Assembly (NCBI GenBank): GCA_005889225.1
Contig: VBEW01000016.1
Coordinates: forward strand, 2,229-66,228
Source: Chloroflexota bacterium
GTDB taxonomy: Bacteria > Chloroflexota > Dormibacteria > CF-121
Direction of reading: 5' to 3'
Length of the DNA stretch: 64,000 nt
How positions within the stretch are numbered: the first letter of the stretch is position 1; each line of letters begins with the position of its first letter. A model generated the notes under the pieces. It was not told the origin of the DNA. It ran no database searches and saw only the letters and a list, made by a program, of their open reading frames with translations. Of this stretch, positions 1,487 to 64,000 are shown piece by piece. The position numbers and the translations under genes were made by a program.

Positions 1487-3793
1487 TCAATCTCCTCCCC
1501 CGCTCGCGGGGGAGGGCAGGGTGGGGGCTTTCCGAATCGCTTCCCAGATCCGACACGGCGTCAGCGGCATATCAAGCTCACGGATGCCCAATGGCCGCAG
1601 CGCGTCCATCACCGCGTTGACGACGGCCGGAGTCGATCCCGTCGTCCCACCTTCACCGATGCCCTTGACTCCCATCGGATTGTGCGGGGTGGGGGTTTCG
1701 GTGCGGTCGGTTTCGAACATGGGTAGATCGGCCGCGGTGGGGAGGAGGTAGGTGGTCAGGTTGCCGGTCAGCAATTGGCCGTCCGGGTCATAGACGACGC
1801 CTTCATAGAGCGCCTGGGCAAGACCCTGGGCGATAGCGCCGTGGAGCTGACCATCAACAATCATCGGATTGATCACCGGACCGCAGTCGTCCACCGCGAC
1901 GTACCGGAGGACTCTCACCGAGCCGGTCTCGGGGTCGACCTCGACGTAGGCGAGGTGCGCGCCAAAGGGGAAGACGGTATCCGGTGGATCGAAGCTCGCC
2001 TTCACAGCGAGCTCATCCGTTCGGCCCTCGCCGGCAGCCCAGCCGGCGATGTCCTTCAGCGTCATGAACCGGGTTGGAACGCCGCGGACGTGCACCCGCC
2101 CGTCGGTCACAACGACATCGGCAGTGGCCGCCTCGAACGCCGCCGCTGCCAGCGCTCGGACCTTTCGCTTGAGCCGGACCGCCCCCTCGTGGACCGCCGC
2201 TCCAGAGATGGCGGCGCTCCGGCTGCCGAACGTGCCGACGGCGTAGGCCGGTTGGTCCGTATCGCCATAGAGGACCCGGACCTTGTCGAACGGTAGGCCG
2301 AAGGCATCGGCGGCGAGCTGGGCCCAGGTGGTCTGGTGACCCTGGCCGTGCGGGGTCGACCCGGTGATCACGGTGATGGTCCCGTCGGGTTCGAGCTGGA
2401 CTGTAGCCCGATCCTCGGCAAATCCGGCGGCTTCCTCGACGTAGGTCGAGATCCCGATCCCCCGCAAGCGGCCGCCCTCGCGCGCGGTTTGCTGCGCGCG
2501 CCGTAGCCCCGAGTAGTCCGCGAGATCGATAAGCCGCTTCAGGCTCGCCTGGTAGTTGCCACTGTCGTAAGTACTGCCGGCGGCGTTGGTATAGGGGAAC
2601 TCCGAGGGCTGAACGAAATTGCGGAGCCGGACGTCGACCGGGTCCAGGTCGAGCTCGCCGGCGAGCCGGTCCATCATCCGCTCGATCAGAAAAGCGGCTT
2701 CGGGACGGCCGGCGCCGCGATACGGGCCGGTCGGAGTGGCGTTCGTATAAACCGCGCGCAGCGTGCTCTGCGAGGCAGGAATGCGGTAGCAGCCCGTCTG
2801 CAATTCCGCCACGACCGTGGGAACGAAGGCGCTGTAGGGCTCCAGGTGCGCGCCCATGTCGGCCAGGACTCGGGATCGAACCGCGAGCACCGTACCGTCG
2901 CGTTGCGCGGCCAGTTCGACGTCCTGCACCTGGCCCCGTCCGTGCCAGGTCCCGGCGCAATTTTCGGACCGCTCCTCGATCCACTTGACCGGGCGGCCGA
3001 GCCGCCGGGCGGCAGCGGCCACCGCGATCTCTTCGCCCACGCAGCCACCCTTGCTGCCGAATCCGCCACCGACGTCCTCGACGATAACCCGCACATCGGC
3101 CTCATCGATCTTGAGGCTGGCGGCGATGGCTTCGCGCACGCCGTACGCCGATTGCGAGGAGAGTTCGATGGTCAGCCGCCCGTCATCGATCCAGGCAAGC
3201 GCACCGCGCGGCTCGAGCGCACTCGGGATCAGCCGCTGGTTGACCAGCCGCTCCTTGACGATCACCGCGGCGCGGTCGAAGGCCCGCTTCACCTGTCCGT
3301 GCTTGGACTCTCGACCGAAGGCGAGGTTGGTGCCGAACTCCGGATAGATGAGTGCCGCGTTCTCCGCCAGGGCTCCCTCCATGTCCATGACGACGGCCAG
3401 CGGGTCGAGCTCGAGATCGATCCGCTCCAGCGCATCGACCGCCAGCTCGCGCGTCTCGGCAACGAGCATCGCGACGGCCTCGCCGACGTAGCGGGTGCGA
3501 CCCGCGGCGAGCACGGCCCGCTCCGGCAACGGCACGCCGTGGACCGGCGCCTCGATCTCCAGCGGCGCCAGGTCGTCAAAATCGGCGGCCGACCAGGCGG
3601 CCACGACTCCTGGCGTGTTCCTCGCCGCATCGAGGTTGAGGCCGGCAATCGTCGCGTGGGCCAGGTGGCTTCGCAGGAAGACGGCATGCAGGCAACCGGC
3701 GGGTTGGACGTCATCGACATAGCGTCCCGCGCCGCGGATCAGCCGCGGGTCCTCGACGCGCCGAACGGAGGCACCAAAGACGGGGGGCGTCAT
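1487..3793 (-). CDS. Xanthine dehydrogenase/CO dehydrogenase family molybdopterin-binding large subunit, form II CoxL-like
   Basis: VGGGFGSKG motif; AYRGAGRPE active-site loop (form II signature rather than AYXCSFR); ~770 aa; probable start at MTPPVFGASVRRVEDPRL (Met37 of the track ORF). Confidence 0.8.
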   Translation of the reverse strand: MTPPVFGASVRRVEDPRLIRGAGRYVDDVQPAGCLHAVFLRSHLAHATIAGLNLDAARNTPGVVAAWSAADFDDLAPLEIEAPVHGVPLPERAVLAAGRTRYVGEAVAMLVAETRELAVDALERIDLELDPLAVVMDMEGALAENAALIYPEFGTNLAFGRESKHGQVKRAFDRAAVIVKERLVNQRLIPSALEPRGALAWIDDGRLTIELSSQSAYGVREAIAASLKIDEADVRVIVEDVGGGFGSKGGCVGEEIAVAAAARRLGRPVKWIEERSENCAGTWHGRGQVQDVELAAQRDGTVLAVRSRVLADMGAHLEPYSAFVPTVVAELQTGCYRIPASQSTLRAVYTNATPTGPYRGAGRPEAAFLIERMMDRLAGELDLDPVDVRLRNFVQPSEFPYTNAAGSTYDSGNYQASLKRLIDLADYSGLRRAQQTAREGGRLRGIGISTYVEEAAGFAEDRATVQLEPDGTITVITGSTPHGQGHQTTWAQLAADAFGLPFDKVRVLYGDTDQPAYAVGTFGSRSAAISGAAVHEGAVRLKRKVRALAAAAFEAATADVVVTDGRVHVRGVPTRFMTLKDIAGWAAGEGRTDELAVKASFDPPDTVFPFGAHLAYVEVDPETGSVRVLRYVAVDDCGPVINPMIVDGQLHGAIAQGLAQALYEGVVYDPDGQLLTGNLTTYLLPTAADLPMFETDRTETPTPHNPMGVKGIGEGGTTGSTPAVVNAVMDALRPLGIRELDMPLTPCRIWEAIRKAPTLPSPASGGGD
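1491..1530 (+). repeat. G-rich palindromic repeat copy 1 (CCTCCCCCG-CTCG-CGGGGGAGGG + CAGGGTGGGGG)
   Basis: 10-bp GC stem plus downstream G-tracts, near identical to copies at 46459-46500 and 52307-52350; lies 6 nt after PPOX stop and encodes the last ~13 codons of the convergent CoxL-like gene. Confidence 0.6.
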
Positions 3794-3818
3794 TTCGACG
3801 AGTGTATCCTCGCCGTGA

Positions 3819-5378
3819 ATGGGCAACCCCGACGGTTCGATGCCCAGCCTCCTTCCCGAGAACAGCTGGCGTGGCGACCCGGCGCTCCGAGCAGTGCTCA
3901 CCTCCTGGTTGCGGCCGCAGACGCTCGCCTGGGCGGAGCCGGCGCTGATCGAGATGGGTCGCGCTGCGGCCGACGAGCTGCAGGACTGGGGCGATCTGTG
4001 CGAGCGACAGCCCGCGGTGCTGCAGCAATTCGATGGCTGGGGCGACCGCGTCGATGAGGTGCGCTACCCACCGGCCTGGCGCGAGATAGCGGCGGCGGCC
4101 GCCCGGGCGGGACTGGTGGCCGCTCCATACGAAACCGAGACGCTGGCCCGCGCCGGGGCCGAGGCGCGGCTAGTGCAGGCGGCGCTGTGTTACCTCTTCG
4201 CCCCGTCGACCGCAACCTATCTATGTCCGGTTGCAATGACCGATGGCGCCGCCCGGGTGCTCGTCGAGGACGGAGGCGCTCCAGCGGGGGACGACGCGTT
4301 GCGCCACCTCATCTCCCGCGATCCGGCTTCGGCATGGACTTCGGGACAGTGGATGACCGAGCGCCAGGGCGGGTCGGACGTGGGAATGAATGCCGTCGTT
4401 GCCAAACGCGATGGCGACGAGTGGCGCCTCTTCGGCCAGAAGTTCTTCTGTTCGAACATCGGCTGCGAGATGGCCCTCGCGCTCGCGCGTCCGGAGCATG
4501 CGCCGCCGGGGACCCCGGGGCTCGCGCTCTTCCTGGTGCCGCGTGACCGTCCCGACGGTCGCCGGAACAGCTACCGCATCGATCGATTGAAGGACAAACT
4601 GGGCACCCGTGCGATGGCGACCGGCGAGGTGACGCTCGACGGCGCGCATGCCGAACTGGTGGGCGAGGCGGAGCGCGGCTTTGCCCAGATGACCGCGATG
4701 TTGAACATCACCCGGCTGCACAACGCCATCACGGCCGCCGCCATCATGCGACGCGCCCTGATGCTGGCGTCGGCGTACGCCGCCCGACGGGAGGCCTTCG
4801 GCCGGAAGCTCGATGAGCATCCCTTGCACCAGGAGGTCCTGCGCGCGATGGCGGTCCAGGCCGATGGCGCGCTGCACCTCACGATGCGGATGGCACAGCT
4901 GCTGGGCCGGATCGAGACGAAGGAGGCGACCAGCGGCGAGGCGGCGCTCTTCCGGCTCGGGATCGCGCTGACCAAGCTCTATACGGCGAAGCAGGCCGTG
5001 GCGGTCGTGTCGGAGGCGCTCGAGTGCTTCGGGGGCCAGGGCTACGTGGAAGATACCGGCCTACCGAGGCTGCTCCGCGACGCGCAGGTGCTCCCCATCT
5101 GGGAGGGGACGACCAGTGTCCTGGCTCTCGACAGCCTGCGCGTCCTTCGCCGGGCCGAAACGCTGGACTGCCTCAGCGCGGAGCTGGAGCGGTTGGATGC
5201 GCCGGACGCGCGGCGCGCGCTCGACGAGGCCCATCTGGTGATCCGGGGGGACGCCGAATCGGCGGAGCGAGCGGCACGGCGGCTGGCGTTCCGGCTGGCG
5301 GAGTCCTGGATGACCGGTCTCCTACAGGCGTCGGAAACGCCCGTTACCCTGCCAGGTATCGGGCTGCGGCCGCGGTAA
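3819..5378 (+). CDS. Acyl-CoA dehydrogenase family protein (AidB-like, long form)
   Basis: C-terminal GGQGYVEDTGLPRLLRDAQVLPIWEGTTSV block typical of ACAD/AidB; ~520 aa; exact start uncertain. Confidence 0.75.
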   Translation: MGNPDGSMPSLLPENSWRGDPALRAVLTSWLRPQTLAWAEPALIEMGRAAADELQDWGDLCERQPAVLQQFDGWGDRVDEVRYPPAWREIAAAAARAGLVAAPYETETLARAGAEARLVQAALCYLFAPSTATYLCPVAMTDGAARVLVEDGGAPAGDDALRHLISRDPASAWTSGQWMTERQGGSDVGMNAVVAKRDGDEWRLFGQKFFCSNIGCEMALALARPEHAPPGTPGLALFLVPRDRPDGRRNSYRIDRLKDKLGTRAMATGEVTLDGAHAELVGEAERGFAQMTAMLNITRLHNAITAAAIMRRALMLASAYAARREAFGRKLDEHPLHQEVLRAMAVQADGALHLTMRMAQLLGRIETKEATSGEAALFRLGIALTKLYTAKQAVAVVSEALECFGGQGYVEDTGLPRLLRDAQVLPIWEGTTSVLALDSLRVLRRAETLDCLSAELERLDAPDARRALDEAHLVIRGDAESAERAARRLAFRLAESWMTGLLQASETPVTLPGIGLRPR

Positions 5379-19438: not shown

Positions 19439-19568
19439 CAGAAAGAGGCCGTAGAAGGCACCACGCGGGGAAAGCGGAGGGCGCCTCTACGGCGATGCCG
19501 GGAGATCGCGACCATCCGATAACGCGCAAGGGGCCTGGCGCGTTACGGCTTATATTGGCGGCTGCAGC

Positions 19569-19838
19569 ATGCTTGATCCGAAGCACCGCGTCATCATCGA
19601 GTTCTGCGTCCCTTGAAACTACCTGGACCAGGCGGTCGGCCTGGCGGCGGAGATCCTGGGAGCCTGGGCGCCCATCATGGTCGACGTTTCCCTGCGCTCC
19701 GGCAGTAAGGGTAGGTTCGAAGTGACCCTGGACGACCAGCTGATCTTCAGCAAGGTGACGCTGCGCCGGTTCCCGCGTCCGGGCGAAATCCTCAGACTCG
19801 CGGAGCCGACGCTTGGCCCCGCGCTCGACTGGCGTTAG
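19569..19838 (+). CDS. SelW/Rdx-family selenoprotein with in-frame UGA (Sec) in CxxU redox motif
   Basis: Translation MLDPKHRVIIEFCVP-U-NYLDQAVGLAAEILGAWAPIMVDVSLRSGSKGRFEVTLDDQLIFSKVTLRRFPRPGEILRLAEPTLGPALDWR with TGA at 19614-19616; flanks match Rdx CxxC/CxxU and G-FEV-FSK motifs; SECIS-like hairpin CCAGGC-GGUCG-GCCUGG at 19628-19644. Confidence 0.6.
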
Positions 19839-21027
19839 CACCCTGTTCCGGCGTCCGCTTCCCTTCCTGCTTGCGCTGGTGCTGGCGGTCGCCGGATTTC
19901 AGTACGCTCGCCCGCTGCCGGTGACCGCGGCGACGTCGATCGTTCCCGTGGCGCAGCGCATCGGCACGGCGCCCGCATTGCCCTGGCCCGCGCAGGGGGC
20001 GGCGGCCCTCGTCATCGATGGCCTCGGCCCCGTAGGAAGCTCGGGCGGTACCGCGCCACTGCCGATGGCCAGCACGGCGAAGATGATGACCGCCTTGATC
20101 GTGCTGGAGGACCATCCGCTCGCGCTCAATGATCCAGGCCCCCTGATCGTGGTGTCGCGGGCGGATGTTTCGACCTATGTCGCCGAGCAGAACCAGGGTA
20201 AGTCGGTGCTGCCGGTGGTGGCCGGTGAGCGGCTCACTGAATATCAGTTGCTGCAGGGGCTGCTGCTGCCCTCGGCCAGCAACTTCGCGGACATGTTGGC
20301 CACCTGGGATGTCGGCAGCGTGCCTGCCTTTGTCAATCGGATGAATGCCCGCGCAGCCTCGCTCGGAATGAGCGCGACCCACTACGCGGATGTGAGTGGG
20401 TTCTCCCCGCTCAGTGTCAGCATCCCGTCGGACCTCATCGTCCTGGCGCAGACCGCCATGCAACTGCCGGTCTTCGCCCAAATCGTCGCTCAGCCGCAGG
20501 CCACCCTGCCGGTCAACGGCGTCATCCGTAACCTCGATGCCTTGCTGGGCCAGGGCGGTATCGTGGGGATCAAGACGGGTCACACCGACCAGGCGGGCGG
20601 TTGCTTCGTGGTGGCGGCCGACCTGAGCATCGACGGTCAGCCGGCACGGGTGTATGGCGCGGTGATGGGCCAGCCTGGTGCGCTCCAAGGGGCGTTTGCC
20701 GCGACCACAACCCTGTTGCGGGCGCTGGCACCAGTGCTCCACCTTCGAACGGTCGTCCACCGCGACGACGTGATTGCACGCTATCAGACGCCCTGGGCCG
20801 AATCGGGGACGATCGTCGCCGCTCAATCCGTCGCCTGGGTATTGATTGATGGCACCACGCTCGCGGGCCGCGTCAAGCTCGACGACCTGCCCTCCACGCT
20901 GCCGGCGGCGACGCGCGTCGGCACGCTGTCCCTTGACGCGGGATTGCACCGAGCACAAGTGCCGTTGATATTGGCGTCGGCGGTGAATGGTCCGGATCTT
21001 GGCTGGCGCCTGACGCGAGGCTTCTGA
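19813..21027 (+). CDS. D-alanyl-D-alanine carboxypeptidase (peptidase S11, PBP5-like), secreted
   Basis: SXXK (STAK), SXN (SASN), KTG (KTGHT) motifs; N-terminal signal peptide; TTG start assumed, overlaps SelW-like gene by ~26 nt. Confidence 0.75.
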   Translation: MAPRSTGVSTLFRRPLPFLLALVLAVAGFQYARPLPVTAATSIVPVAQRIGTAPALPWPAQGAAALVIDGLGPVGSSGGTAPLPMASTAKMMTALIVLEDHPLALNDPGPLIVVSRADVSTYVAEQNQGKSVLPVVAGERLTEYQLLQGLLLPSASNFADMLATWDVGSVPAFVNRMNARAASLGMSATHYADVSGFSPLSVSIPSDLIVLAQTAMQLPVFAQIVAQPQATLPVNGVIRNLDALLGQGGIVGIKTGHTDQAGGCFVVAADLSIDGQPARVYGAVMGQPGALQGAFAATTTLLRALAPVLHLRTVVHRDDVIARYQTPWAESGTIVAAQSVAWVLIDGTTLAGRVKLDDLPSTLPAATRVGTLSLDAGLHRAQVPLILASAVNGPDLGWRLTRGF

Positions 21028-41418: not shown

Positions 41419-42477
41419 TCAGGGCGTGACGGTGAGCGCCGTGGCCGAACTGACGATCGTGCCGTCCCCGTTTGTCAGCTGGATCACGTAATCCTGGACC
41501 ACCTGCCCGGCTGGCACTTTGACGGTCAGCGTCGACGAACTGACCAGGGTCGGCGCCAGGCCGGTGAAGGCGCCGCTCGGGCTCGCAACTGGTACAAAGC
41601 GAATGCGAAGCGCCCGGCCCTCGATGAAGCCGGTGCCCTGGATGGTCACGACGGTGGCCTGCCCGGTCGAGACGCGCGAGGGGCTGACCGCCTGTACGGT
41701 CGGTCCGGAGCTGGGCGGCGGGCTGGCGGTGCCGTTCGTCCGAAGCACCAGGTATGCCGGAAACGGCGCCAGTGCTGCGGGTGTTCCGGGTTGACCGTGC
41801 CATTGGGCGATGTCGGGCTGTGCCAGGTTGATGGGAAGCGCGGTTCCGCTGGCGGTCAGTATCCCGAGCACTTTGCCGCCGGGTCCGACCACCGGCCCGC
41901 CGACATTACCCGGGAGGTCTTCCGCCTGCAGCCGCAATTGGGTATCCGTCGTGCTGCTGACGAACGCCGAGGTCGCGGCCGGGAGGTTTTCGATCCGCGG
42001 GTTCGACAGCAGGACGACTGGGTCGTTACGAAGCAAGACGGCCGGATTACCCAGCGGCATCGGTCGTCCCTGCGCGGTTACCCGCACCTGGGCGATCCCC
42101 AGGGCGGGGTCGATGCCCACCAGGTTAACCGTATGCATGCTGCCGCTGTTGTCCACCAGCCGGAGACTCTCGCCGCCGCTGACCAGGCGCGCCGCCGTGA
42201 GGAAATCGCCTTGCGGATCGATCAGAAATGCGGTCCCGAAGGTGTGGCTGTTGACGATCGTCACCACGCCCTCGAGGGCTCGATCGAGCTCGTCAGGTAG
42301 CAGCACCGAGGCCGGCGGCGCAGTTGGCGTCGGGGTCGGCGGCGGCGTTGCGCTGGGACGAAACGCCATCAGGCGCTGGGCCGCCGTGGGGATGAGGACG
42401 GCGGCCCCGACCAGGACCAGGCTGATGACGAGGGCGGCGAGCAGTTGCTCCAGCCGGCTCTTGGGCAGGCGGCTCAC
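41419..42477 (-). CDS. Membrane-anchored trypsin-like (HtrA/S1C-fold) pseudo-protease with C-terminal IPT/TIG domain
   Basis: S1C-like blocks GTAFLIDPQGDFLTAARLV (His replaced by Arg) and PGNVGGPVV (Ser replaced by Val); IPT-like C-terminus; track start 42540 also possible, GTG at 42477 preferred. Confidence 0.55.
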   Translation of the reverse strand: MSRLPKSRLEQLLAALVISLVLVGAAVLIPTAAQRLMAFRPSATPPPTPTPTAPPASVLLPDELDRALEGVVTIVNSHTFGTAFLIDPQGDFLTAARLVSGGESLRLVDNSGSMHTVNLVGIDPALGIAQVRVTAQGRPMPLGNPAVLLRNDPVVLLSNPRIENLPAATSAFVSSTTDTQLRLQAEDLPGNVGGPVVGPGGKVLGILTASGTALPINLAQPDIAQWHGQPGTPAALAPFPAYLVLRTNGTASPPPSSGPTVQAVSPSRVSTGQATVVTIQGTGFIEGRALRIRFVPVASPSGAFTGLAPTLVSSSTLTVKVPAGQVVQDYVIQLTNGDGTIVSSATALTVTP

Positions 42478-42541
42478 AGTGTTGAAACGAGGATGGCCGG
42501 GCTTTCTTGGAGTCGCGCCGGTTTCGTATACATTCATCACG

Positions 42542-43741
<1,200 letters not shown>

Positions 43742-50775: not shown

Positions 50776-50863
50776 GCCGTTGCCGCCACCGGCTCTTGGG
50801 GAGGCGCAGGCTGGCGGTGCCGCTGCCGTTTACCTAATTTTCGTTGCTGAGGAGCCCGAAACA

Positions 50864-52282
50864 ATGCTGCTTGTGGAAGTCCGCCGCCTGGATATCGCGC
50901 CGTCCGCCGATCAGTTCTGGACGATCGTCTCCCGCGTCAACGGCCCGGAGTTCATGGGCGTTCTATACCGAGCCCGCGAAGCCATTTTCGACAGTGCCGG
51001 AATCGCCTTCACCATCGACCTGCTGAACAAGTTCCTGCAGTTTGACGTGACAAAGAGTTGGTCCGCCGCCGATGAGGGGGAGCTGTTCATGGGGTCGGCG
51101 CCGGTGGTCGGCTGGTTGCGCGTCCGCCGTCCGGGCTCGGCCACCCTGCGTGAGCTCCGATCGGACGACATTCATTTCATGGAGCTCGAGCACGCTGCCA
51201 AGCCGGCGTTCGTGGAAGTCGGTGTCGCCTATCGCGCCGGCACCGAGAAAGTGCGAACGGACTTCCTCAAGCGCATTCGGACCGCCGCCCAGGAGGCGCT
51301 TGGCCAGGAAGTGGGGACGCCGTCGTCCTGGCCGGTGCTCGCCCCCGTGGGCAGCCATAACTTCGATGCCATCCGCAAGTCCCGCCAGGCATCCTACGAA
51401 GCCAGCGCCGAAGAAAACCAGGCGATGGCCGCGTTTACCACCCCGGAGATTCGGGCACTCATCCGCGACCTCGAGCGAGTTGGCTCGCTGACGGTTTCCG
51501 ACCTCCCCAAAGTCCTGGGCGAGGCGCAGGGGACGGCGGTCGCCGGCAGGCTCGGTGAGCTGCGCAACCTTGGCCTGATCCAGTCCGAGTATGTGATCGT
51601 GTGCTCGCGCACCGGAAATGCCGTGCTCCGCACTGACGATCCGAACAAGCTGCAGAAGATGGCACCCGATTGGATGAAGTGCGCCTGTGGCCGGCCGCTG
51701 AATGAAGAGCGGGTTGACCAGGTGATCGTGCCGACCGACCGCGCCACCGCGCTCAACGACAAGGGTCGCTGGATGACGACGCTGGCGACGGCGATCCTCC
51801 CCAAGCTCGGCATTAGCCGTGAGCAGGTCATCATCGACGCCAGTCCCCAGGGCACGGACATCGTGCTCGACCTCAGCGGTGACCTCGTGCTGGTGGTCCT
51901 GAAAGATCACGAGTTCAACCTGGCCGATGCCTACGCCTTCAACGCCAAGGTCTCACGCATCAAGGCCGCAGAAGGCGTGATCGTCAGCAATGAGGGGCTC
52001 TCCGGCGATGCCAAGAAGCTGGTCCAGGATGAGCTCGGTCCGCAACGCGCCCGGATCACGGATCCGTTCCGGATCACCTTCGTGGAGGGCGTCCAGGCGT
52101 TTGAGCACGACCTCGGCCGGGTCGTGGAACGGCGGCGCCGCCAGTATTTCCTGCGGGCGCTCGGCGACCTGGCGACCATTCAGGGCCTCAACATCGGTCA
52201 GCTCGCGCTGGCGAAGGTCGAAGCGGGCGGCCGCGTCGGCAAAGAAGTCGTGGCGCCGGAGGCCGTTCCCGCCGAGGCGTAG
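50864..52282 (+). CDS. Multi-domain protein: unknown N-domain, wHTH-like segment, Cys-cluster zinc ribbon, C-terminal Mrr-like PD-(D/E)xK nuclease domain
   Basis: C-terminal GTDIVLDLSGDLVLVVLKDHEFNLADAYAFNAKVSRIKAAEGVIVSNEGLSGDAKKL aligns with Mrr_cat restriction-endonuclease core; CSRTGNAV...KCACGRP; start at MLLVEV with GAGGAG SD. Confidence 0.65.
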   Translation: MLLVEVRRLDIAPSADQFWTIVSRVNGPEFMGVLYRAREAIFDSAGIAFTIDLLNKFLQFDVTKSWSAADEGELFMGSAPVVGWLRVRRPGSATLRELRSDDIHFMELEHAAKPAFVEVGVAYRAGTEKVRTDFLKRIRTAAQEALGQEVGTPSSWPVLAPVGSHNFDAIRKSRQASYEASAEENQAMAAFTTPEIRALIRDLERVGSLTVSDLPKVLGEAQGTAVAGRLGELRNLGLIQSEYVIVCSRTGNAVLRTDDPNKLQKMAPDWMKCACGRPLNEERVDQVIVPTDRATALNDKGRWMTTLATAILPKLGISREQVIIDASPQGTDIVLDLSGDLVLVVLKDHEFNLADAYAFNAKVSRIKAAEGVIVSNEGLSGDAKKLVQDELGPQRARITDPFRITFVEGVQAFEHDLGRVVERRRRQYFLRALGDLATIQGLNIGQLALAKVEAGGRVGKEVVAPEAVPAEA

Positions 52283-55758: not shown

Positions 55759-56097
55759 ATGCGCGTGATGGATGTCGTCAATGAAACGAAAGCGGCCATG
55801 CGGGCGAGTGAGGTTTTCGGGACTCCTTACGAGAAGAACGGGGTAACGATCATTCCTGCGGCCAGGATCGCCGGCGGCGCCGGTGGCGGCGGCGACCAGC
55901 AGGAGCCGCAGGCAGGCGGTGTGGGTTTCGGGGTGTCATCGCGTCCGGTCGGGGCCTTTGTGATCAAGGGCGGCGAGGTCAGCTGGCAGCCGTCCCTGGA
56001 TCTGAACCGAGTGATCTTGATGGGCCAGGTCGTGGCCATCGTGGCTCTGCTCACGGTGCGCGCGGCCATCAAGGCCTGGGCGAAACGGCGCGCGTGA
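55759..56097 (+). CDS. GerW/YtfJ family protein
   Basis: VFGTPYEKNGVTIIPAARIAGGAGGGG...GVGFGVSSRPVGAFVIKGGEVSWQP matches YtfJ/GerW; AGGAGG SD. Confidence 0.65.
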   Translation: MRVMDVVNETKAAMRASEVFGTPYEKNGVTIIPAARIAGGAGGGGDQQEPQAGGVGFGVSSRPVGAFVIKGGEVSWQPSLDLNRVILMGQVVAIVALLTVRAAIKAWAKRRA

Positions 56098-57341
56098 TCC
56101 CGGCGGCGATCGACCTCGACCTGCAGTCGGTCCGGCGGCAGTTTCCCGCGCTCGGGCTGCGGATCGACGGCCGGCCGGTCGTTTACCTGGACAATCCGGC
56201 CGGTACGCAGGTGCCCCAGCGGGTCATCGATCGGACCACCTCCTACTGGCAGACGATGAACGCCAACCAGGGCGGCGTGTTTGCTACCAGCGAGCGCTCG
56301 GACGCCCTGATGCTCGAAGTGCGCGCCGCCGCTGCGGCGTTCGTCAACGCCGATTCGCCGGAGGAGATCGTCTTCGGGCCGAACATGACCACGCTGACGT
56401 TCGCCGTCAGCCGCGCCATCGCGCGCGAACTGCGGGCGGGCGATGAGATCCTCGTCACCCGGCTCGAACACGACGGCAACGTGTCGCCCTGGCTGGCACT
56501 CCAGGAGCAGGGGATCATCGTCCGGTTCGCCGACATCAAGACGCCGGAGTGCACGCTCGACCTCGATGACCTCCGGCGGCAGCTGACGGCGCGGACCCGC
56601 CTGGTCGCCGTGACCCACGCGTCCAATGTGGTTGGGACGATCCCGGATCTTCCGGCGGTGGCGAGCGCCGCTCACGCGGTCGGGGCCTGGATGTGGGTGG
56701 ATGCCGTTCACTACGGTCCTCACGGGTCGATCGACGTGCAGGCGCTCGACTGCGACTTCCTGGTCTGCTCCAGCTACAAGTTCTACGGACCGCACCTCGG
56801 GATCCTCTACGGGCGTCGCGAACTGCTGGAGCGGCTGCGGCCCTACAAGGTCCGGCCGGCCAGCGACGAGCTGCCGAGCCGCTGGGAGACCGGCACCCAG
56901 AACCATGAGAGCCTCGCCGGCCTGCTCGGCGCCTTCGAGTACCTCGCCGGTCTTGGCGGGTCGAAGGTGGTCCGGCGGGAAGCGTTCGAGGCGGCCATGC
57001 AGCGAATCCAGGCGCACGAGCAGGCGCTGGCGGCGCGCCTGCTCGCCGGCCTCGAACTGATTCGAGGGATCCAGATTTTCGGGATCACGGCACCCGATCA
57101 GCTTCACCGCCGCGCCCCCACCGTCTCGCTCATCTGGCCGCCCCACCGGCCGCAGGCGCTCGCGCGCTGGCTGGCCGGCCAGCAAATCTTCACCTGGCAC
57201 GGTGACCACTACGCGCCCGAGCTGATCGCCAGGCTGGGTCTTAGCGATCGTGGCGGCACGCTTCGGATCGGCCCGGCTCACTACAACACCGCGAGCGAGG
57301 TGGATCTCGTTCTCGAAGTGCTGGCCGGTTTCAAAGGCTGA
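56094..57341 (+). CDS. Class V aminotransferase / cysteine desulfurase family PLP-dependent enzyme
   Basis: VVYLDNPAGTQVPQRVID, THASNVVGTIPDLP, PLP-lysine in SSYKFYGP; no SufS-type catalytic Cys near C-terminus. Confidence 0.75.
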   Translation: MIPAAIDLDLQSVRRQFPALGLRIDGRPVVYLDNPAGTQVPQRVIDRTTSYWQTMNANQGGVFATSERSDALMLEVRAAAAAFVNADSPEEIVFGPNMTTLTFAVSRAIARELRAGDEILVTRLEHDGNVSPWLALQEQGIIVRFADIKTPECTLDLDDLRRQLTARTRLVAVTHASNVVGTIPDLPAVASAAHAVGAWMWVDAVHYGPHGSIDVQALDCDFLVCSSYKFYGPHLGILYGRRELLERLRPYKVRPASDELPSRWETGTQNHESLAGLLGAFEYLAGLGGSKVVRREAFEAAMQRIQAHEQALAARLLAGLELIRGIQIFGITAPDQLHRRAPTVSLIWPPHRPQALARWLAGQQIFTWHGDHYAPELIARLGLSDRGGTLRIGPAHYNTASEVDLVLEVLAGFKG

Positions 57342-58305
57342 TCAACACCACGCCGGTGAGGGCCAGCCCGATCCCGGCCTGCTGCAGACGCGCCATGCGC
57401 TCATCCAACACGATCCGCGCCAGCACGACGGTGGCGACCGGGTACAGCGACGACAGGATCGAGACGACGCTCAAAAGGCCGGTGGTGGTGGCAAACGCAA
57501 AGAACACGTCGGCCCCGACGTCCAGCACCCCGACGGCAAACAGCGCTGGCAGGTCGGGCGGACGAGGCTTGATGCGCGATCGAAACGCCAGCCCAAGAAG
57601 CAGCAGCACGGAAACGCTGCCGGCCCGCGTGGCCAGCACTCCCCAGACCGCGTCGGGCCGGCTGGCAAAGCGAATCGCCACCAGGAAGAGCCCGAACGAG
57701 AGCGCGGCGATAAGGGCCAGGCCGGCGCCGGGAACGAGCCGCCGCCCGGGCTGCGCGGGGCGGCGATCGAACGCCAGCAGCGCGACCCCACCCAGGGTCA
57801 GCGCCATGCCGGCGAGCTGAAGCCCACCGGGTCGTTCACCGAGTGTCAGCCCGACGAGGACCGGAACCACCGGCCCGGTAGCGGCAATCGTCGAGACCAC
57901 GCTGACCACGCCGATGGCCATGCCGCGGTAGATCGCGGCCAATCCGACCAGACCGATCAGGCCGGCGAGAACGCCGGCCACCATCCAGGGCCCGGGGCGG
58001 AAGGGTACGCCGCGCACGATCACGACGGCGGCGATCATGGCCAGGGTCGGTGGCTGCGACAGGAAGAGCACCGCGAAGGTACCCAGGCGTCGAGTCTTGA
58101 AGCCGCCGATGAAATCGCCGACGCCCCAGCTCAGGCTGGCCGCGAGCGCGAGCAGAACCGCGGTCAGGTCGAGACCCGCCGGACCGTAGCCCTGACGGCA
58201 AGATCCCCGAGCCGCTGCCGGTGGCCGCGGCGAAGCAGGAGCACCGCGTCGATGGGCCAGAGGAAAACGAGCACGCCGATCGCGTTTCGCAGCGCCGCGC
58301 GCCAC
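57331..58305 (-). CDS. EamA/DMT superfamily transporter (start uncertain)
   Basis: 10-TM DMT profile (two EamA repeats); only in-frame start (58305) would overlap upstream DedA-RDD gene by 142 nt. Confidence 0.55.
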   Translation of the reverse strand: MARGAAKRDRRARFPLAHRRGAPASPRPPAAARGSCRQGYGPAGLDLTAVLLALAASLSWGVGDFIGGFKTRRLGTFAVLFLSQPPTLAMIAAVVIVRGVPFRPGPWMVAGVLAGLIGLVGLAAIYRGMAIGVVSVVSTIAATGPVVPVLVGLTLGERPGGLQLAGMALTLGGVALLAFDRRPAQPGRRLVPGAGLALIAALSFGLFLVAIRFASRPDAVWGVLATRAGSVSVLLLLGLAFRSRIKPRPPDLPALFAVGVLDVGADVFFAFATTTGLLSVVSILSSLYPVATVVLARIVLDERMARLQQAGIGLALTGVVLISL

Positions 58306-59222
58306 CAGCCTGGTACCCCACCCTCGGGACCGTACACGGAGATGCCCATCAGGAGCTTGCCAAGCGTCTGGCCGGTTCGGGCCTCGTAGGGCACCCGATA
58401 GAGCAAGGTCACGCCGGCAAGGAGCAGGAGACCTTCCGGGTCGAGCACAACCTCTGTTGTCTCGAGCCCGGATGCGGCGGTCAGAATGAGTACGGTGATC
58501 CCAAAGGTGAGGGTCAGGTCGACGATGGCGGCCCAGAGGCGGCGGATCAGCGGATAGTCCTGCCAGGTTCGGTCGTCCCGGTCACGAAAAAGTTTGGCTT
58601 CAATCGAGTCGGCCAGATTCCGCCGCACGGCGAAGACGATCGGCTCCAACGCGGTCAGCGCGCCGCGACGCGCCAGCCAGCGGATGGACAACACGACCGC
58701 CAGGGTGGCCAGCGTCGTGACCGCGATGACGAACAATCGGTGCTCGGCGCGGTGAAATAGCCGGACCGCTGGCTGGCCGACCAGCGCCCCCAGGCCGACG
58801 AAGAAGGCGATGTAGACCAGGACGGAGGGAATCAGGCCGGCCGCAAAGGTCAGGCGAGGCATGTTGCTGACGCCCGCCGCCTGGGTTGTATGAATTCGCA
58901 AGCCGGGTATCAGGCGACCGGCGAAGACGGCCGGCGCGCCGCCTCGGCGCAGCAGGTGGATCGCGCGTTCGAGCGCCGGCCGAAAGCGCAGCGTATCGGC
59001 AACCTTCATCACCGCAGGCTGACCCACCGTGGCGAAAATCTCGCGGCCGATCATGGCCCCGATCACCGTCGCCAGCAGCAAGGCGGCGACCATGGGGACC
59101 GGGTCTACGGTGCCACTGGCGATCGCGATGCCGGCGATCATCAACAAGAGGTCGCCGGGCGCGAACGGAACCGGGACCCCACTCTCCTCGATGAAGACCA
59201 GGCCCGCGATGACGGCAATCAA
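58164..59222 (-). CDS. DedA (SNARE-associated) domain fused to RDD family membrane domain
   Basis: N-terminal DedA blocks (VFIEESGVPVPFAPGDLLLMIAG; FAGRLIPGLRIHTTQAAG), C-terminal RDD blocks (LIRRLWAAIVDLTL; RQRLGDLAVRATVRRV). Confidence 0.7.
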   Translation of the reverse strand: MIAVIAGLVFIEESGVPVPFAPGDLLLMIAGIAIASGTVDPVPMVAALLLATVIGAMIGREIFATVGQPAVMKVADTLRFRPALERAIHLLRRGGAPAVFAGRLIPGLRIHTTQAAGVSNMPRLTFAAGLIPSVLVYIAFFVGLGALVGQPAVRLFHRAEHRLFVIAVTTLATLAVVLSIRWLARRGALTALEPIVFAVRRNLADSIEAKLFRDRDDRTWQDYPLIRRLWAAIVDLTLTFGITVLILTAASGLETTEVVLDPEGLLLLAGVTLLYRVPYEARTGQTLGKLLMGISVYGPEGGVPGWWRAALRNAIGVLVFLWPIDAVLLLRRGHRQRLGDLAVRATVRRVST

Positions 59223-62452: not shown

Positions 62453-63166
62453 ATGAAGCGGGCGCGACGTTCCACGGCCGCGGTCGTCTACATCACGGGC
62501 CTGAGCGGCGCGGCCGTGATGGGCACCTTCGCGTTGAGCCGCGTCGGCGGATCAGGCGCGCTCCTGTGGACCTTTATCATCCTGACCGGCCTCGGCATGG
62601 TGGCGCACGCCTTCCCGATCCAGGGCAGCCGGCATCAGGCCTACCAGGTCACGCTTCCGTTCATCATTGCCGCCGCGGCCTTGTTTAGCGCCGCGCAGCT
62701 CGTCGCGTTCGTTGTCCTGATCCATCTGGCCGAGCAGGCGCGGCTTCGCCGGCCGCTTCACATCCAATGGTTCAACGTCTGCAACTACTTCCTGAGCGCG
62801 GCGGTGGCGGCAGCGTTCTTCAATCGCGCGATCGCCCTGCTCCCAGAAGGTGCGATCGGCCAGGTGGCCGCCGCGATGGCGGCCGGTTGTACGTTCATCG
62901 TGCTCAACCGACTCATCCTGGCCGGCGCGCTCTGGCTGGCCCGCGGACTCTCGCTCGCTGCCTCGGGGTTGCTCTTGCCCCGCCTGCTGGCCGCCGACCT
63001 GATCATCGCCTGGATGGCCGGCCCCATGCTGGTCCTCACGCTGCTGGCGGGACCCTGGATGGTGCTGGTCACGGCGGGCCCGCTGTTGCTGGCACGCACG
63101 GCTCTTTCGGTGCTCGTGCCGTCAGTCCCGCGCCGGGCGAAGCACGCGAGGGTGCGCGCCGCCTGA
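62453..63166 (+). CDS. Polytopic membrane protein, stand-alone paralog of the N-terminal membrane module of the downstream GGDEF protein
   Basis: 7-8 TM; shared blocks with next gene (HIQWFNVCNYFLSAAVAAAFF vs YIQAFNVANFVLCSLAAGALF). Confidence 0.55.
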   Translation: MKRARRSTAAVVYITGLSGAAVMGTFALSRVGGSGALLWTFIILTGLGMVAHAFPIQGSRHQAYQVTLPFIIAAAALFSAAQLVAFVVLIHLAEQARLRRPLHIQWFNVCNYFLSAAVAAAFFNRAIALLPEGAIGQVAAAMAAGCTFIVLNRLILAGALWLARGLSLAASGLLLPRLLAADLIIAWMAGPMLVLTLLAGPWMVLVTAGPLLLARTALSVLVPSVPRRAKHARVRAA

Positions 63167-63175
63167 CGGCAACCC

Positions 63176-64000
63176 ATGGCTGATCTGCCGCGCGCCGCTC
63201 GACTCTACCTGGGAGCGGTCCTGGTCACCGCATCGCTCGCCGCCGTCGTCGGCATCATCGTCGCCCCGGCTCGCCTCGCGCTGGCCCCGGTTGCACTGGT
63301 TCTGCTCGGCTGCGCGGCCGTTGCCCAGCAATTCAAGGTGCGAAGCCCCAAGCACCAGTCGTACTACACGACGACGATTTTCTTCTTCGCCGCGGCGCTG
63401 CTGCTGCATCCCGGATACGTGGTCGCGATCATCGTGGTGGCGCACGCCGTGGAGTTGTTGCGGGTCCGCTACCGCTGGTACATCCAGGCCTTCAACGTCG
63501 CGAATTTCGTCCTTTGCTCGCTGGCCGCGGGCGCCCTCTTCAGCGCCGGACTTCAGGGCCACGCAGCGGGAGACGCCCGGGCCCCGCTGTTCGCGCTGCT
63601 CGCGGGTCTGGTATTCGTCGGTCTCAATCACGTGCTCACCGCATTGGTGATCATGTGGGCGCGTGGCGTCCCAATCTCGCGCGCCGGGACGTTGGATTGG
63701 GACAACCTGGGCACCGACCTGGCGTTGATGTCCGTTGGTGCGCTCGGCTCCTTGCTGTGGCTCACCAACCCGTGGTTCGTCCCGCTTTGCCTTGGTCCGC
63801 TCTTCCTGATCTATCGATCGTTGCTGGTGCCCACGCTGAAGGAAGAGGCGCGGACCGACCCGAAGACCGAGCTGGCCAACATGAAGCACTGGAACGAGGT
63901 CGCTCAGGCCGAGGTGGAGCGGGCTCGTCGCTTCGGCCGCCCGTTGACCGTCGTCCTCGCCGACCTCGATCTGCTGCGCGAGATCAACAACCGGCACGGC
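63176..64000 (+). CDS. Membrane sensor module fused to GGDEF diguanylate cyclase domain, 3'-partial
   Basis: N-terminal 7-TM module then RFGRPLTVVLADLDLLREINNRHG (start of GGDEF domain) running off the window end. Confidence 0.6.
   Translation, partial: MADLPRAARLYLGAVLVTASLAAVVGIIVAPARLALAPVALVLLGCAAVAQQFKVRSPKHQSYYTTTIFFFAAALLLHPGYVVAIIVVAHAVELLRVRYRWYIQAFNVANFVLCSLAAGALFSAGLQGHAAGDARAPLFALLAGLVFVGLNHVLTALVIMWARGVPISRAGTLDWDNLGTDLALMSVGALGSLLWLTNPWFVPLCLGPLFLIYRSLLVPTLKEEARTDPKTELANMKHWNEVAQAEVERARRFGRPLTVVLADLDLLREINNRHG

Follow-up and report, generated by a model that had tools for sequence, protein, structure and literature searches.

Small selenoproteins of the SelW-like type, with a CxxU motif, were described in bacteria in 2005, when no other family of selenoproteins was as abundant in the Sargasso Sea data (Zhang, Fomenko & Gladyshev, PMC1088965). 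The family was analysed across genomes in 2006 (Zhang et al., PMC1794560), and a 2026 review treats SelW-like (SELENOW-like) proteins as a high-confidence predicted family under PF10262 (PMC13188914). The gene considered here, found in a 64-kb stretch of soil bacterial DNA that was analysed as a whole and is called the window below, is a real member of this bacterial selenoprotein family known since 2005, and one that gene callers routinely truncate. It is very probably a genuine selenocysteine (Sec)-decoding SelW-like gene.

The gene and its annotation

The features of the coding region are as follows.

19569 to 19838, plus strand: gene of a probable SelW/Rdx-family selenoprotein, 89 codons and a TAG stop (from the sequence, profile scores and orthologs)
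19605 to 19616, plus strand: redox motif Cys13-Val-Pro-Sec16 (TGC GTC CCT TGA), from alignment to the CxxC of 3DEX and 2FA8, with Sec16 putative
19614 to 19616, plus strand: UGA codon, presumably read as Sec (TGA in orthologs, Cys codons in homologs)

Read directly from the sequence, the open frame begins with ATG at 19569 and ends with TAG at 19836-38, has 89 residues including the UGA position, and holds a single in-frame TGA, at codon 16; the Cys13 codon is TGC at 19605-07. Translation with read-through gives MLDPKHRVIIEFCVP-U-NYLDQAVGLAAEILGAWAPIMVDVSLRSGSKGRFEVTLDDQLIFSKVTLRRFPRPGEILRLAEPTLGPALDWR, with the termini MLDPKHRVIIEFCVPUNYLDQAVGL...LGPALDWR, exactly the 89-residue frame around the TGA at 19614-16 that the initial annotation had translated. 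That annotation also called the gene unannotated, which is right for the 89-residue frame as a whole but not for the piece that follows the TGA, since many public records call this fragment of 53-71 aa and label it Rdx or "selT/selW/selH-like putative selenoprotein".

A protein search of 5.8 billion sequences returned 120 relatives, almost all of them 53, 60, 61, 65 or 71 aa long and starting at differing in-frame sites just past the CxxU position, and the few full-length database relatives carry EFCVPC. Virtually all public records of these soil lineages cut the gene to 53-71-aa pieces that are without the active site, and the same truncation affects at least 79 species-level genomes. The chief use of the finding is to mend this annotation and to point to Sec use in the Dormibacterota and neighbouring soil lineages. 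The observation from which the present analysis started is confirmed, and its interpretation in terms of family, CxxU site, Cys homologs and a SECIS-like hairpin is supported.

Family and fold

With U read as C, the protein matches PF10262 (Pfam Rdx) at 64.5 bits against a cutoff of 22.6 (E = 1e-17) over profile positions 1-71 of 74, and it retains 57.4 bits with X at the UGA; TIGR02174 (CXXU_selWTH) is matched at 54.5 bits against a cutoff of 34.2. Both family profiles are well over their thresholds and bear out the proposed SelW/Rdx assignment. The Campylobacter-type equivalog NF041051 gives 72.7 bits, under its cutoff of 88, and the protein is therefore not of that equivalog. A PDB sequence search found 3DEX (1.9e-10) and 2FA8 (1.4e-9), with C13 and U16 on their CxxC; U16 is aligned with the second Cys of both structures, so that the UGA does sit at the CxxC/CxxU position to which it had been assigned.

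The fold was checked on a full-length Cys homolog (P0014, 58% identical) by means of its AlphaFold model (pLDDT 89.9). The model runs strand-helix-strand-strand-strand-helix, which is the thioredoxin-like beta-alpha-beta-beta-beta-alpha fold, and places C14 and C17 between strand E7-14 and helix H20-37; the C13-V-P-U16 motif of the window protein correspondingly falls between the end of strand 1 and the start of helix 1. Foldseek matched the model best to 2FA8, 2OBK, 3DEX and 2P0G (TM 0.78-0.83, rmsd ~1 A) and next to MIEN1, mouse SelW and thioredoxins. Profile scores, fold and CxxC alignment together establish Rdx/SelW membership. Within the family the proteins share a subfamily signature, GRFEVTLD[DG]..[FY]SK, and a conserved C-terminal tail, LGPxxxWR.

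Conservation of the UGA and coding evidence

The ortholog set consists of DNA from 80 species-representative genomes encoding relatives, which belong to the Dormibacterota (often labelled "Chloroflexi CF_xx"), Acidimicrobiia, Nitriliruptorales, Limnocylindria and others. The initial annotation had asked whether close relatives carry TGC at the CxxU codon: across these several phyla and classes the codon is TGA in 79 of the 80 species representatives and TGC in a single one (L060). TGA stands at the same codon also in six strain-level metagenome contigs. Cys homologs with EFCVPC are found as well (P0014, P0104, P0113 and P0116), giving the Sec/Cys pairing at this position. The protein similarity (E = 1e-17) and the conservation of the UGA (79/80 species) are both far beyond chance. 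In three metagenome-assembled genomes (MAGs) two TGA-containing copies lie on separate contigs (L040/L046 in DATARN01, L072/L081 in DATCPH01, L067/L085 in PLZO01); these are either paralogs or strain mixtures within the bins.

An ATG or GTG lies exactly 15 codons 5' of the TGA in all 18 closest species. For the 15 codons that precede the TGA, these species show entropies of 0.20/0.10/0.72 at codon positions 1/2/3; the values are 0.24/0.17/0.88 for the 60 codons past it and 1.44/1.44/1.47 further upstream of the start. The coding-type entropy on both sides of the TGA shows that the two halves are translated as one protein, and translation as one protein excludes both a pseudogene and the shorter annotated ORF. 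Reassignment of the UGA codon was considered and rejected on stop-codon usage: the 52 predicted window genes end in TGA (20), TAG (18) or TAA (14), and UGA is thus an ordinary stop here.

The stem-loop downstream of the UGA

Two overlapping stem-loop registers, R1 and R2, can be drawn just 3' of the UGA.

19628 to 19644, plus strand: candidate bSECIS hairpin, register R2 (from the sequence, folding, bSECIS constraints, and RNAalifold in Dormibacterota clade 2)
19631 to 19649, plus strand: site of the family-wide putative SECIS register R1 (from covariation, and RNAalifold in three clade subsets), weakened in the window

In the window R2 is made of the stem CCAGGC (19628-33), the loop GGUCG (19634-38) and the stem GCCUGG (19639-44); after an 11-nt spacer the stem starts with the 12th nt past the UGA, and the distance from UGA to loop is 17 nt. 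R2 is contained in the minimum-free-energy (MFE) fold of the window sequence and is worth -12.0 kcal/mol, against -6.2 for R1. The bSECIS model (PMC13188914) calls for an upper stem of 4-16 bp, a loop of 3-9 nt with G in its first two positions, 16-37 nt from UGA to loop and an MFE of at most -7.5 kcal/mol, and the window R2 conforms to all four constraints with 6 bp, the 5-nt GGUCG, 17 nt and -12.0 kcal/mol. Such a structure is nevertheless not rare by chance, since the fold energy of 19605-19675 is no better than that of shuffles (z = +0.86), and a comparable hairpin follows 7.4% of all TGA trinucleotides in the window (66% G+C), or 0.8% when G-U is demanded at loop positions 2-3; R2 taken alone is for this reason only suggestive.

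Comparison among species, by means of a gap-free alignment of 80 sequences (A2), is more informative. In all 79 TGA orthologs the UGA is followed, at a distance of 17 or 21 nt, by a 5-nt loop with G-U at its positions 2-3. In 68 species the more stable register is R1, formed by A2 columns 24-30 with 36-42 and with its loop GGUCU 21 nt past the UGA. At its pair 28-38, 62 sequences have G-C, 15 have A-U and one is unpaired; its pair 29-37 is U-G, U-A or C-G with none unpaired, and its covariation score was reached by 0 of 500 shuffles, with far lower values for slid controls. R2 shows no covariation across the whole family in the 80-sequence alignment; in the window and in the three species closest to it, where R2 has -12.0 and R1 -6.2 to -6.7 kcal/mol, it is the more stable register, as it is in a second Dormibacterota clade, there with the loop CGUGA. 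In the window R1 keeps 5 of its 7 pairs and has a G-G mismatch and the loop GGCCU, in which the loop U is lost. Three substitutions separate the window subclade from its sister, two synonymous (GCC to GCG and GGT to GGC) and one conservative (GAG/GAA/GAT to GAC), and together they both weaken R1 and complete R2. The hairpin CCAGGC-GGUCG-GCCUGG noted earlier 12 nt downstream of the UGA is present and bSECIS-like, but it is a clade-specific register, the hairpin of most relatives lying 4 nt further 3'. One orthologous gene is seen to carry two registers 4 nt apart (19628-19649; A2 columns 21-42), with a G-U loop in both.

RNAalifold on the mixed 80-sequence alignment returned neither register, only an uninformative 3-bp consensus; clade-wise runs recovered R1 for three groups and R2 for Dormibacterota clade 2, and for the window's own four-sequence subclade RNAalifold gave a longer alternative fold. 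Three relatives (L007, L008 and L023) have an extended MFE structure, whose UGGC loop lies 25 nt past the UGA. The distant TGC homologs L088 and L060 have neither hairpin. A further homolog, L087, has TGT at the Sec codon; it is full length (27-299 of ENA ERZ27255773 k141_2490459), with flanks and R1 hairpin nearly identical to those of TGA-bearing Acidimicrobiia orthologs, and is apparently a very recent Sec-to-Cys (TGA-to-TGT) conversion or a sequencing variant. As a Cys control expected to be without a hairpin it failed, R1 being retained after the recent change, and the hairpin is therefore not strictly tied to the UGA over short evolutionary times.

No SECIS family of Rfam matched the window at the gathering threshold, and at a permissive threshold the interval 19560-19720 gave chance-level matches only (E ~2-3, to miRNA and snoRNA models). 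Since bSECIS elements are poorly represented in Rfam (preprint 10.64898/2026.04.03.716425), this is not counted against a SECIS function.

Selenocysteine machinery

No SelA, SelB or SelD was found among the predicted proteins of the 64-kb window (Pfam scans of ~50 proteins), ARAGORN called no tRNA-Sec in it, and no Rfam family of any kind reached the gathering threshold there. The 10 kb past the right edge of the window likewise hold no selA, selB, selC or selD. Across 1.3 Mb of related loci SelA, SelB and SelD gave no tblastn match with approximate E. coli queries, and ARAGORN found no tRNA-Sec in the related loci. A 64-kb sample is expected to miss the Sec genes by chance, and their absence from the window is thus unsurprising.

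Several candidates in these searches were set aside. An ARAGORN "tRNA-???" at 43037-43124 (minus strand) was considered as an odd tRNA-Sec; it has a two-base anticodon and no Rfam tRNA match, runs antisense to a class-I Cys-tRNA-synthetase-type gene (41810-43741) that encloses it, and is almost certainly spurious. A run of 93 N in L007 (7423-7515) came into question as a masked tRNA but probably marks a scaffold gap, the matching window site falling within a coding gene. A class-V aminotransferase (PF00266, the cysteine desulfurase / selenocysteine lyase-type fold) is also encoded in the window, at 56094-57341 on the plus strand; this fold is not selenium-specific, and the gene is no evidence of Sec machinery.

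Complete Sec machinery has been reported as universal in Actinomarina, the Actinomarinales being placed in the Actinomycetota (preprint 10.64898/2026.04.03.716425). The 80 loci include no Actinomarinales locus. We take the Actinomarinales to belong to the Acidimicrobiia, a class that carries the TGA ortholog. The Actinomarina result supports Sec decoding here only indirectly. A literature search on Dormibacterota/Dormibacteraeota with selenocysteine and selenoproteins found no paper linking them; Sec decoding by Dormibacterota, soil Acidimicrobiia and Limnocylindria is indicated by the gene described here.

Alternative readings and proposed mechanism

The initial annotation had itself named a decayed Cys gene as the alternative, that is a TGC or TGT mutated to TGA in a pseudogene followed by a chance hairpin. 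One base separates TGA from either Cys codon, the hairpin by itself is no more than chance would give (7.4% of TGAs; z = +0.86) and no Sec machinery is seen in the 64-kb window, yet decay is refuted by a TGA kept in 79 of 80 species of several phyla with the frame intact and the start codon conserved, by third-position-biased substitutions on either side of the TGA, and by a hairpin maintained with compensatory changes, so that its probability is practically nil. It is also extremely improbable that the real gene is the post-TGA ORF of 53-71 aa and the upstream segment a regulatory or leader sequence or else a 15-residue peptide of its own. Although callers do annotate products of 53, 60, 61, 65 and 71 aa, which Pfam still matches, the start codons of these fragments are unconserved and vary in position among species, the fragments are without strand 1 and the CxxU motif, and the 15 upstream codons share the codon-position pattern of the downstream part in the same frame behind a conserved ATG/GTG.

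Read-through of the UGA without Sec, by near-cognate Trp or Cys insertion or by some SelB-independent route to a CxxW or CxxC protein, has in its favour that no Sec machinery turned up in the searched DNA of this genome and that other bacteria have functional Cys forms of the family. It is very unlikely, however, for UGA is a standard stop (20/52 genes) and a bSECIS-type hairpin held at a fixed distance by compensatory changes is needless for read-through; Sec forms moreover predominate in Sec-using organisms (PMC1794560), and Sec machinery is documented in the Actinomarinales (preprint 10.64898/2026.04.03.716425), an order absent from the 80 loci. A different kind of doubt concerns which hairpin would serve as the SECIS of a genuine selenoprotein gene. 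R1 is the sole register with family-wide covariation, and the L007/L008/L023 fold with its UGGC loop at 25 nt also fits the bSECIS rules on spacing and G in the loop; nevertheless R1 in the window, with its G-G mismatch, its GGCCU loop and an energy of -6.2 kcal/mol, lies above the -7.5 limit, whereas R2 has a perfect 6-bp stem, -12.0 kcal/mol and a GGUC loop, is the consensus structure of Dormibacterota clade 2, and was built by the same three subclade substitutions that break R1. That the R1 site (19631-19649) or the longer fold serves here in place of R2 is on balance rather unlikely.

The preferred reading is then that of a Sec-decoding SelW-like gene with R2 as its SECIS. The gene has the family and fold of an Rdx protein, a conserved UGA with coding selection on both sides, and a conserved and covarying hairpin; that the UGA is read as Sec, and not as another residue, is an almost certain inference. 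Taken as a functional gene, it would encode a cytoplasmic SelW/Rdx-family protein of 89 residues, with the thioredoxin fold and a redox centre Cys13-x-x-Sec16. The UGA at 19614-16 would be recoded during translation by an mRNA stem-loop just 3' of it (19628-19644 in this clade), which would present G-U in a 5-nt loop and recruit SelB-GTP-Sec-tRNA(Sec) to the ribosome, leading to insertion of Sec instead of termination. Binding of the hairpin by SelB and the redox function of the protein are predictions, and the product would be a selenosulfide/thiol-selenol oxidoreductase. We know of no bacterial SelW-like protein with a defined substrate, and to our knowledge the function of the family in bacteria is not known.

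Gene neighbourhood

Two further features flank the coding frame.

19551 to 19556, plus strand: TATATT, a hexamer resembling a -10 element, 12 nt before the ATG, with similar elements in relatives
19813 to 21027, plus strand: Peptidase_S11 gene, D-Ala-D-Ala carboxypeptidase family (PF00768; synteny in 17 species)

There is no Shine-Dalgarno sequence between TATATT and the SelW ATG. The relatives L009-L022 have TATAGT or TGATACGCT-type motifs, and the -10-like element ends 6-12 nt before the ATG or GTG. A sigma-70 two-hexamer scan found nothing. These hints suggest, weakly, that the SelW-like mRNA may be leaderless or have a short leader.

The gene order in the window is YceI, amidase, 5'-3' exonuclease, SelW-like, Peptidase_S11 and TelA. 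Within a single Dormibacterota clade, 17 species keep the one-strand triplet of exonuclease, SelW and S11. Two members of clade 2, L024 and L025, have an S11 homolog ~1.65 kb upstream, and elsewhere in the compared loci the SelW-S11 association is absent, so that it is specific to the one clade. Here the S11 TTG at 19813, which has GGAG upstream of it at 19802-05, overlaps the 3' end of SelW by 26 nt, and if this start is used the earlier suggestion of an overlap with the downstream D-Ala-D-Ala carboxypeptidase holds. The TTG is not typical of the clade: in 14 of the 17 syntenic species no ATG, GTG or TTG occurs in the open S11 frame before the signal-anchor, the window being one of the three exceptions. 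The signal-anchor itself (RRPLP[FY]LLAL...FQY.RPLP) is conserved with coding-type entropy (0.26/0.27/0.84) and starts 13 or 20 nt past the SelW stop, at 19849 in the window. The only near-cognate candidates in frame sit at the SelW stop, CUG/AUU/AUC at +7 in the window subclade (19843-45) and a CUG at -8 as the candidate of the sister subclade. A frameshift fusion of SelW and S11 was considered; since the S11 frame relative to SelW is +1 or +2 according to subclade, fusion is unlikely.

Coupling of the carboxypeptidase to the SelW-like gene in this one Dormibacterota clade is plausible, and one may speculate from the reading frames that S11 starts in a non-canonical way, perhaps through termination-reinitiation linked to translation of SelW. 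The stronger proposal, that the SelW-like gene acts as a translational gatekeeper of S11 through termination-reinitiation and that the 4-nt SECIS shift is in addition a natural experiment on SelB spacing, is a long shot. If true, synthesis of a cell-wall enzyme would be tied to Sec insertion at the upstream UGA, and hence to selenium supply, and the 4-nt move of the SECIS between sister clades, with the G-U loop kept, would record how much variation in spacing SelB tolerates.

Some other observations concern the surroundings. The Cys-form homolog P0113, in L088 (1-3282), lies in divergent orientation beside a xanthine-dehydrogenase-type Mo enzyme operon (FAD_binding_5, Fer2, MoCoBD), and the window has a MoCoBD enzyme at 1487-3901 on the minus strand, 16 kb from the SelW-like gene. 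Four plus-strand ORFs of the window (50780-52282, 57250-58389, 62453-63166 and 63176-64000) have coding-like GC3 and no Pfam match at E <= 1e-5; opposite 57250-58389 the public calls have a minus-strand EamA-family gene, and this ORF may be spurious.

Comparison with known systems

The E. coli fdhF SECIS and the window hairpin share a position directly 3' of the UGA and a GGUC-containing apical loop. Numbering from the U of UGA puts the loop G-U of the window at 22-23, against presumably G23/U24 in fdhF. The window stem differs in being 6 bp without the bulged U and without the long lower helix of fdhF, its binding by SelB being a prediction. Eukaryotic SelW is decoded in another way, by a 3'-UTR SECIS with SBP2/eEFSec as against an in-ORF hairpin with SelB, as is well established (PMC1088965). 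Mouse SelW (NMR structure 2NPB) and MIEN1 (2LJK) belong to the same Rdx superfamily and have the CxxU/CxxC motif at the same position, but they are distant (Foldseek TM ~0.6, 19-26% identity).

Closer in structure are the Cys SelW-related proteins of A. tumefaciens (Atu0228, 2FA8) and S. avermitilis (SAV_2001, 3DEX), which have the thioredoxin-like fold with their CxxC on the CxxU, and those of P. fluorescens (2OBK) and V. cholerae (2P0G), which have the same fold; the P0014 model superposes at TM ~0.8. All four differ in having Cys at both sites (YCTQC) and no recoding, at an identity of only 26-36%. The bacterial SelW-like selenoproteins are the nearest described system, and the present gene shares with them the Pfam/TIGRFAM family, the size, the CxxU near the N-terminus, the small stem-loop directly after the UGA with G in its apical loop, and the scarcity of Cys homologs among close relatives. 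Since bacterial SelW-like CxxU selenoproteins are already known, novelty is low; the gene adds members to a well-established selenoprotein family and does not change that family. What sets these members apart are their hosts, the soil Dormibacterota, Acidimicrobiia and Limnocylindria, together with the GRFEVTLD[DG]..[FY]SK signature, the LGPxxxWR tail and the two SECIS registers found within this one orthologous group.
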